From a virus (taxonomy: Duplodnaviria; Heunggongvirae; Uroviricota; Caudoviricetes), in the IMG/VR virus record IMGVR_UViG_637000105_000003: a DNA stretch of 49,246 bases. One strand, 5' to 3'. Below the pieces are notes generated by a model. That model was not told where the DNA came from. It saw nothing but the letters and a program-made list of their open reading frames with translations, and did not search any database. Every line of letters starts with the position of its first letter. Position 1 is the stretch's first letter. Both the position numbers and the translations under genes were made by a program. Below, piece after piece: positions 46,605-48,665 of the stretch.

Positions 46605-48266
46605 ATGGCAGTACAGATTTCAGGCGTGCTGAAAGACGGTGCAGGAAAACCGATACAGAACTGCACCATTCAGCTCAAAGCAAAACGTAACAGCACCACG
46701 GTTGTGGTGAACACGGTGGCCTCAGAAAATCCGGATGAAGCCGGACGTTACAGCATGGATGTCGAGTATGGCCAGTACAGCGTTATCCTGCTGGTTGAAG
46801 GTTTTCCGCCTTCACATGCCGGGGCCATCACCGTGTATGAGGATTCTAAGCCGGGGACATTGAATGATTTTCTGGGCGCTGCAACAGAAGATGATGTTCG
46901 TCCGGAGGCACTGTATCGTTTTGAAAAGATGGTGGAAGAGGTGGCACGCAACGCTGAAGCCGCCTCTCAGAGCGCAGCGGCAGCAAAGAAATCAGAAACA
47001 GCAGCGGCATCGTCCAGGAATGCGGCGAAAACATCAGAGACGAATGCAGGTAACAGCGCGAAAGCGGCAGCTTCTTCAAAAACAGCCGCACAAAACGCAG
47101 CAACAGCGGCAGAACGTTCAGAGACAAATGCCCGTGCGTCAGAAGAAGCCTCCGCAGACAGTGAAGAGGCTTCCCGCCGTAATGCAGAGTCAGCCGCTGA
47201 AAATGCCGGAGTCGCCACCACAAAAGCGCGGGAGGCCGCAGCAGACGCAACAAAGGCCGGGCAGAAAAAGGATGAGGCTCTGTCGGCAGCGACACGGGCT
47301 GAAAAGGCGGCAGACCGCGCAGAAGTCGCAGCGGAAGTGACTGCAGAGCCCTATGCGAATATAGTGCCGCCGCTGCCTGATGTGTGGATACCGTTTAACG
47401 ATTCACTGGATATGATTGCGGGTTTTTCTCCGGGCTATAAAAAAATAGCTATTGGTGACGATGTGGTTCAGGTCGCCAGTGATAAACAGGTTAATTTCAG
47501 TCGCGCATCAACGGCAACATATATCAACAAATCTGGCGAACTGAAAACGGCGGAAATTAATGAGCCGCGATTTGAGTGTGATGGCCTGCTTATTGAGGGA
47601 CAAAGAACGAACTACATGCTCAATTCGGAAAGTCCAGCCAGCTGGGGGAAGTCATCAAACATGGATGTGCCCGAAACCGGGACAGATAGTTTTGGTTTTA
47701 CTTATGGAAAGTTTGTCTGCAACGATTCTCTGGTTGGGCAAACTTCGGCTATTAATATGGCATCAATTGCTGCAACAAAGTCAGTTGATGTCTCAGGCGA
47801 TAACAAGTACGTGACAACCTCATGCCGTTTTAAAACAGAACGACAGGTAAGGTTACGTATACGGTTTGATAAGTATGATGGTAGTGCAACAACTTTTCTT
47901 GGCGATGCGTACATTGATACGCAAACGCTTGAAATTAATATGACAGGTGGGGCTGCCGGCAGAATTACGGCACGAGTCAGGAAGGATAAGACCACAGGCT
48001 GGATTTTTGCAGAGGCAACGATTCAGGCAATTGATGGTGAGTTAAAAATAGGCTCTCAGATACAGTATTCTCCTGAGCGGGGTGGGGCAACAGTATCTGG
48101 TGACTATATTTATCTTGCCACCCCACAAGTAGAGAATGGGCCGTGTGTATCATCATTTATTATTTCAGGAGGCAGCGCAACGACAAGAGCCAGTGATTTG
48201 GTTAGTATCCCCACCAGAAATAATCTTTATAAGTTACCATTTACTTTTTTACTTGAGATTCATTAA
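46605..48266 (+). CDS. stf: Side tail fibre protein (Stf-like), ends at in-frame TAA
   Basis: N-terminus MAVQISGVLKDGAGKPIQNCTIQLKA... matches lambda Stf by recollection; Ala/Ser-rich repeat shaft. Confidence 0.8.
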   Translation: MAVQISGVLKDGAGKPIQNCTIQLKAKRNSTTVVVNTVASENPDEAGRYSMDVEYGQYSVILLVEGFPPSHAGAITVYEDSKPGTLNDFLGAATEDDVRPEALYRFEKMVEEVARNAEAASQSAAAAKKSETAAASSRNAAKTSETNAGNSAKAAASSKTAAQNAATAAERSETNARASEEASADSEEASRRNAESAAENAGVATTKAREAAADATKAGQKKDEALSAATRAEKAADRAEVAAEVTAEPYANIVPPLPDVWIPFNDSLDMIAGFSPGYKKIAIGDDVVQVASDKQVNFSRASTATYINKSGELKTAEINEPRFECDGLLIEGQRTNYMLNSESPASWGKSSNMDVPETGTDSFGFTYGKFVCNDSLVGQTSAINMASIAATKSVDVSGDNKYVTTSCRFKTERQVRLRIRFDKYDGSATTFLGDAYIDTQTLEINMTGGAAGRITARVRKDKTTGWIFAEATIQAIDGELKIGSQIQYSPERGGATVSGDYIYLATPQVENGPCVSSFIISGGSATTRASDLVSIPTRNNLYKLPFTFLLEIH

Positions 48267-48665
48267 AACTGGGATATTGCACCAAACGCCGCACCCCGCG
48301 TGTGGGATATAGCAGCAGCCAATACCGGGCAATCAGCAATTGCAGCAATCAACAGAGGTAGTGGTAAGTTATATATGAGTCTGTCAAACCCTTCAGGCTT
48401 GTATGTTAATAGCGCAGCGACAGATGTATTTGCAGAGAAAACCACATTTGGATGTATTGCAAAAGCTGATGGTCACTTTCATGTGGTGACAAATGGTAAA
48501 GCGGTTAATGAAGTTTATTGTGAATATAATGGTGTGACCGCTGATAAAAATATCCGATTTGGAGGGCAGACGAATACTGGAGAACGACATCTGTTTGGCC
48601 ATATTCGCAATTTCCGCATATGGCATAAAGAATTAAATGACAGGCAATTAAAAGAGGTCGTATGA
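48267..48665 (+). other. Same-frame continuation of the tail fibre ORF after the TAA stop; LamG-like C-terminal motif
   Basis: Reading frame continues unbroken for 132 codons; ends FGHIRNFRIWHKELNDRQLKEVV resembling LamG/concanavalin-like domain endings. Confidence 0.45.

Follow-up and report, generated by a model that had tools for sequence, protein, structure and literature searches.

A nonsense substitution apparently confined to CFT073 interrupts the side tail fibre gene of a phage-21-like prophage inside its LamG-like domain

The side tail fibre gene (stf) of a prophage in uropathogenic Escherichia coli CFT073 has, with a probability of about 0.93, undergone a recent nonsense mutation specific to this strain, by which the fibre tip was removed in a prophage damaged by insertion sequences (IS). 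The gene was analysed within a stretch of 49,246 nucleotides, referred to as the window, and all positions are those of the window unless another record is named. The case is one of ordinary prophage decay and not of a new gene arrangement.

An in-frame ochre codon in the side tail fibre gene

The stf reading frame opens at ATG 46605, with GTG 46599 as an alternative start, and runs for 553 codons up to the residues ...LPFTFLLEIH, which are followed by TAA 48264–48266. Downstream of this codon the same frame continues for 132 sense codons (NWDIAPNAAPRVWDI...RQLKEVV) before it is closed by TGA 48663–48665. Sequence and frame agree in this respect with the first-pass annotation, which had reported the TAA and the 132 open codons behind it. 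The joined product, however, does not have the 687 residues given there, a figure which includes the terminal stop or assumes another start; counted from ATG 46605 it comprises 553 + 1 + 132 = 686 residues. Among 20,000 mononucleotide shuffles of the 396-base segment behind the stop only one kept the frame open, and since the segment also has clear homologues, the continuation is not a product of chance.

The elements of the locus are as follows:

43064–46546: gene J, the central fibre gene, followed by a terminator-like hairpin at 46565–46584 and by stf from 46605, in the same order as in phage 21
46605–48263, plus strand: truncated side tail fibre (stf) frame, with GGAG before ATG 46605, a match to PF08400 and a 686-aa phage 21 orthologue annotated as side tail fiber
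48264–48266, plus strand: premature ochre codon TAA, which is AAA (Lys554) in all non-CFT073 copies in which the codon was read
48267–48665, plus strand: orphaned 3' remainder of stf, comprising 132 codons and TGA, unchanged relative to phage 21

Two features identify the gene as stf, namely the N-terminal PF08400 domain of its product and its location directly 3' of gene J. A Tfa-type chaperone gene is absent behind stf; the two downstream ORFs, which are also present in phage 21, hit nothing but PHROGs without an assigned function and have no significant match to a Pfam or NCBIfam family.

Origin of the window and state of the prophage

Three E. coli CFT073 assemblies share bases 47300–48700 with 100% identity, and hundreds of other strains, most of which are extraintestinal pathogens, share them with 99.9% identity. 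The whole window corresponds to positions 1405612–1454857 of NZ_CP051263.1. It represents a lambdoid prophage of the phage-21 type that adjoins sitABCD in this uropathogenic strain. Within the window the prophage extends from the integrase to the region that encodes the tail fibre; sitDCB lies directly past the window's end. The right half is 99.5–99.9% identical to the phages PhiR57_1 and ev017 and to classical phage 21, while the left half matches ev017 and PhiR57_1 with 99.9% identity in four pieces, at a coverage of 79%. This four-piece match fits the three IS elements that are annotated in CFT073 and absent from the 99.8–99.9% identical phages ev017 and PhiR57_1:

1289–2502: IS3, inserted in xis
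5503–7754: ISEc10, inserted in an ea22-like gene
18494–19707: second IS3, located after ren, between ren and ninB, with the same transposase accession as the IS3 in xis

Because xis is interrupted, the CFT073 prophage may excise inefficiently anyway.

[quoted passage not shown] Just past position 49246, sitDCB(A) follows directly behind the two small ORFs (L001, 5039–7401; L010, 3787–4911). Additional cargo genes of the prophage encode an OmpC/NmpC-like porin (22634–23716) and Iss, a bor-like serum-survival lipoprotein (25507–25800). A search of the window with ARAGORN detected no tRNA gene and hence no suppressor candidate; two tRNA genes have been reported for the genome of phage 21 (PMC9119081).

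Domain organization of the intact fibre and position of the stop

Three domains can be assigned in the 686-residue protein:

46605–46997, plus strand: lambda-Stf-type N-terminal domain, residues 1–131 (PF08400, phage_tail_N; E = 9.8e-69, 230 bits)
47589–48191, plus strand: middle globular domain, residues 329–529, related to Rcc01080 of RcGTA (NCBIfam NF048003, GTA_spike_fiber)
48213–48662, plus strand: C-terminal Laminin_G_3 (PF13385)/concanavalin-like domain, about residues 537–686, cut by the stop and assigned from Pfam matches of homologues, a modelled strand and fold matches

Residues ~100–245 are rich in alanine and are modelled as long helices, though with low confidence. The match of NF048003 to residues 329–529 reaches 55.3 bits and thus exceeds the curated cut-off of 36. 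A profile built from the last 437 residues, searched against PDB sequences, retrieved Rcc01080 (PDB 6tb9) with an E-value of 1.8e-24; the alignment spans residues ~302–544, the last residues being ...TRASDLVSIPT. In this search only the middle domain was matched, and the LamG-like part gave no match.

The LamG-like character of the C-terminal segment, which had been proposed from its terminal residue pattern, is supported by its homologues. In the protein itself PF13385 scores 23.9–26.0 bits, just below the gathering score of 27.6, whereas homologues lie above this cut-off (P0147, 44.8 bits; P0163, 35.6 bits; P0121, 30.2 bits), and 20 of the 31 homologues aligned match at E ≤ 0.01, with a best E-value of 6.8e-12. 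An AlphaFold model of residues 250–686, calculated with a diverse alignment, reached a pLDDT of 87.7 and a pTM of 0.85; a first run, on the full 686 aa and with a shallow alignment restricted to closely related sequences, had given a mean pLDDT of 48.7 and was set aside. Searched with Foldseek, the model of residues 250–686 retrieved pentraxins, sialic-acid-binding modules of family CBM40 and Hc domains of botulinum toxin, all in accordance with a β-sandwich of the LamG/pentraxin/CBM type. These matches were obtained for residues 250–686 as a whole and support a concanavalin-like fold for the region at that level; it is the Pfam matches that tie the fold to the C-terminal domain.

The stop had been thought to split the fibre from its tip. 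However, it is situated within the LamG-like domain, some 17 residues from its start and behind the first modelled strand, and not at a domain boundary. This location follows from the start of the Laminin_G_3 alignments in P0147, P0163 and P0170, which begin 17, 11 and 14 residues, respectively, before the stop-equivalent residue and at profile positions 11–15 of 151, from the modelled strand 546–554, the last residue of which coincides with the stop (the next strand comprises residues 565–569), and from the end of the homology to Rcc01080 at about residue 544. Strand 546–554 was placed in the C-terminal domain by means of the homologue Pfam alignments together with the end of the Rcc01080 homology. 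What remains in the truncated product is the spike-fibre-like domain with one orphan strand, whereas about 130 of the ~150 tip residues are lost.

No other part of the fibre varies as much within the family as the C-terminal domain. Three or more divergent allelic types of the LamG-like tip occur, each preceded by the conserved joint NNLYxLPFTxLxEVHKNWxxxPNAAPRV (alignment A1, columns ~920–1077, corresponding to residues 537–686). The whole C-terminal module of 437 residues is, moreover, also fused to unrelated fibre N-termini (PF12571 and PF03406), and recombination appears to shuffle such modules. Variation and module fusion of this kind are typical of tips that bind receptors. Terminal position, variability, fold and the pattern of module fusion suggest that the lost LamG-like domain is the distal tip of the fibre and could bind a glycan or another receptor.

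The stop is a single substitution

UTI89 and ATCC 11775 read ATT CAT AAA AAC TGG at the site where CFT073 reads ATT CAT TAA AAC TGG, and AAA is likewise found in NGF1, MY504, EC5931, ABU 83972 and phage 21. Over positions 45552–49246 (3,695 bases) phage 21 differs from the window solely at base 48264, where CFT073 has T for A. The same base is the sole difference of ABU 83972 over positions 46300–49246 (2,947 bases) and of ATCC 11775 over the stretch compared. A probe of 81 bases with the stop at its centre matched 576 complete E. coli records, three of them exactly, all of which are CFT073 assemblies, 572 with one mismatch and one with greater divergence. The codon was read directly in phage 21 and in seven E. 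coli records other than CFT073, eight copies in all; the survey of the 576 records is based on the probe and on identity bands, and for the remaining one-mismatch records the position of the mismatch was deduced. Taken together, these comparisons indicate that an A-to-T transversion at 48264 turned Lys554 (AAA) into the ochre codon TAA, and that this change is confined to CFT073.

The fact that no further divergence has accumulated, in combination with the restriction to one strain, favours a recent neutral event. The truncation might instead be non-neutral, either because the Rcc01080-like domain has become a new distal end which alters binding, or because loss of the tip was a selected step in the domestication of a prophage that carries sitABCD, iss and the porin gene, but such a role appears improbable.

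Very improbable, too, is an error of sequencing or assembly, an alternative already raised in the first-pass annotation, according to which true CFT073 has AAA and an intact gene. It is a single base that separates CFT073 from all other strains, the site lies between a T-rich run and an A run, and reference-guided polishing may have carried one mistake into all three CFT073 assemblies; the T at 48264 may also represent a stock-specific change shared among the sequenced CFT073. However, the stop is reproducible at the assembly level, since three separately deposited assemblies of 5,242,376, 5,236,926 and 5,236,915 bp all carry TAA. The differences between these assemblies in length and submitter, and the nature of the change, which is a substitution and not an error in homopolymer length, argue against an artefact.

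The copy of E. coli PMV-1 (L007, 2501–2572) was considered as an independent lesion and rejected, as many small indels are found near the site in a low-quality assembly. Gene J of PMV-1 is annotated as frameshifted, and this copy suggests an assembly of low accuracy, not real decay. Literature searches did not yield a paper describing the CFT073 stf mutation.

The fibre is continuous in its homologues

The 686-aa protein is the standard form of this fibre, and a single cluster at 90% identity contains 2,232 members. In an alignment of 30 close or moderately diverged homologues the stop position is occupied by K or R and is part of the conserved block NNLYxLPFTxLxEVHKNWxxxPNAAPRV. When the 132 residues behind the stop were searched against 1.84 billion cluster representatives, 62 matches were obtained, about 30 of which cover the whole segment with identities of 29–66%. 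All of these are continuous across the stop-equivalent residue, and in almost all of them the segment forms the extreme C-terminus of a protein of 300–1481 aa. Short database entries that start near the stop were inspected as candidate standalone tip genes and discarded, as they are fragments from contig ends or genes called on further damaged copies. Phage 21 possesses a single side tail fiber CDS of 2,061 nt, followed by the same ORFs of 92 and 97 aa, and in other sequenced phages, too, the fibre is encoded without interruption and has this segment as its C-terminal end.

Outside CFT073 no stop was observed at this position in the probe records, the 30-member alignment or the ~30 distant representatives. 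Homologues which end here and are followed by a separate downstream gene, an arrangement that would have spoken against a nonsense mutation, were found neither among the ~30 distant and 30 close homologues nor in phage 21. With orthologues that are intact and a single substituted base at the stop, the gene has the hallmarks of inactivation by nonsense mutation, and the original suggestion that such a mutation cut off the receptor-binding tip is borne out, the role in receptor binding being putative.

Reading frames downstream of the stop

Behind the stop three ORFs have to be considered:

48300–48665, plus strand: GTG-initiated ORF of 121 codons without an upstream Shine-Dalgarno sequence, annotated by PGAP as 'hypothetical protein'
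48662–48940, plus strand: 92-aa ORF, phrog_1361, a family of unknown function; its ATG overlaps the stf TGA
48953–49246, plus strand: 97-aa ORF, phrog_1443, a putative membrane protein in the annotation of phage 21

GTG 48300, to which the first-pass annotation had drawn attention as a possible start of a separate tip protein, is present and in frame. In a functional two-gene arrangement, the tip translated from this codon would join the truncated fibre. This proposal could draw on the ORF annotated by PGAP and on the fragment itself, which on its own matches Laminin_G_3 with an E-value of 1.1e-05. However, the 20 bases upstream of the GTG (caccaaacgccgcaccccgc) contain no Shine-Dalgarno sequence, whereas GGAG, AAGAGG and AGGAGG precede ATG 46605, ATG 48662 and ATG 48953, respectively. 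Promoter-like sites around the stop are no commoner than in shuffled sequences, and a scan for terminators near the stop gave nothing above shuffle expectation. None of the ~30 distant and 30 close homologues is split here, and standalone homologues of the fragment were not found: matches with full coverage come from the C-terminal ends of long proteins, while the short entries beginning nearby are the fragments and truncated copies described above. In addition, the fragment lacks residues 537–565 and with them the first modelled strand of the domain. On this evidence a separately initiated tip is very unlikely, and the missing Shine-Dalgarno sequence together with the incomplete domain makes the PGAP call at 48300 best read as a mechanical one. 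The 132 codons past the stop are, by all appearances, an untranslated remnant which is still undiverged, and not a gene.

Programmed readthrough or suppression yielding some full-length fibre is the least likely reading, for the perfect preservation of the downstream frame is equally expected of a very recent mutation, with no other difference from phage 21 in 3.7 kb, none of the other copies examined has the stop, which is therefore not a conserved recoding site, the window is devoid of tRNA genes, and UAA is the most efficient terminator in E. coli.

The overlap of start and stop codons in the sequence ATGA (48662–48665) suggests that the 92-aa ORF is probably translationally coupled to intact stf.

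PGAP cuts stf into an N-terminal 'pseudogene, missing C-terminus' and an overlapping in-frame CDS (46605–46968 and 46941–48266 in the window; L002, 2306–4366). The latter, which has an internal start, is labelled 'phage head spike fiber domain-containing protein'. This split occurs even in UTI89, ABU 83972 and MY504, where the ORF of 686 codons is uninterrupted, and is a systematic artefact of annotation.

Comparison with known systems

The closest relative is stf of phage 21 (OL657228.1, CDS 19234–21294, protein UMO75437.1), whose DNA, apart from base 48264, is the same as window positions 45552–49246. The flanking genes correspond as well, with J upstream and the 92-aa ORF, the 97-aa ORF and sitDC downstream. 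In phage 21 the codon is AAA (Lys) and the full 686 aa are encoded, whereas in CFT073 the codon is TAA and the protein ends after residue 553.

A further parallel is found in phage lambda PaPa, in which a frameshift divides stf into orf-401 and orf-314 (Hendrix and Duda 1992, as cited in PMC12617516). The side fibres of lambda accelerate adsorption 10- to 30-fold, leave plaque counts unchanged and are dispensable for plaques (PMC12617516). In both lambda PaPa and CFT073 a point lesion in a lambdoid stf removes the distal portion of an accessory fibre, and both proteins share the PF08400 domain. The lesions differ, however, in that lambda carries a frameshift and CFT073 an ochre codon. Moreover, the tip of the lambda fibre is T4 gp37-like and binds OmpC, whereas the phage-21-type tip is LamG/concanavalin-like, and in contrast to lambda a Tfa-type chaperone gene is missing behind CFT073 stf.

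Rcc01080 (PDB 6tb9), the homologue of fibre residues ~302–544, is the head spike fibre of RcGTA; this fibre mediates attachment to the capsular polysaccharide (PMC7296036). Whereas Rcc01080 is a 325-aa head decoration made up of a single subunit, the related domain forms the central part of a tail fibre here, with the LamG-like domain behind it. In CFT073 this Rcc01080-like domain lies upstream of the stop and is still encoded.

The same LamG-like tip is hit by an IS66-family (ISEc23-like) element, inserted after residue 642, in EC5931 and in the phages 1W, 3W, D2, 4A7 and Lambda_4C10:

L008, 2891–5081: IS66-family element in the fibre tip
L012, 5764–8180: IS66-family element in the fibre tip

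These lesions are insertions and cost only the last ~44 residues, whereas that of CFT073 is a point mutation. They represent independent, recurrent loss of the same fibre tip.

Consequences for the prophage and its relatives

The normal stf product consists of 686 residues, with the Stf collar domain, an alanine-rich helical shaft, the RcGTA-spike-like domain and the LamG-like domain. In the CFT073 lineage the A-to-T change at 48264 has converted Lys554 into an ochre codon, so that translation would end after residue 553. Any fibres still made would presumably have no binding function or would fail to fold. Since termination occurs 400 bases earlier and the ATGA overlap points to coupling, expression of the 92-aa ORF is probably lowered as well. 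The prophage can probably afford to lose the fibre tip, since side fibres are accessory structures, laboratory lambda being an example, and since IS elements, one of them in xis, had already damaged it.

For the annotation of CFT073 the finding means that the 'hypothetical protein' of 121 codons represents the detached end of a side tail fibre gene, and that the phage-21-like prophage of this reference uropathogen is without its fibre tip in addition to carrying three IS elements. This is relevant to attempts to induce the CFT073 prophage, to the use of the strain as a source of its tail fibre and to counts of 'intact' prophages; beyond annotation its significance is small. The architecture of the intact protein, in which an Stf N-terminus is combined with a GTA-spike-fibre-like domain and a variable LamG-like tip, gives a modest hint that the side fibres of phage-21-like phages bind glycans.
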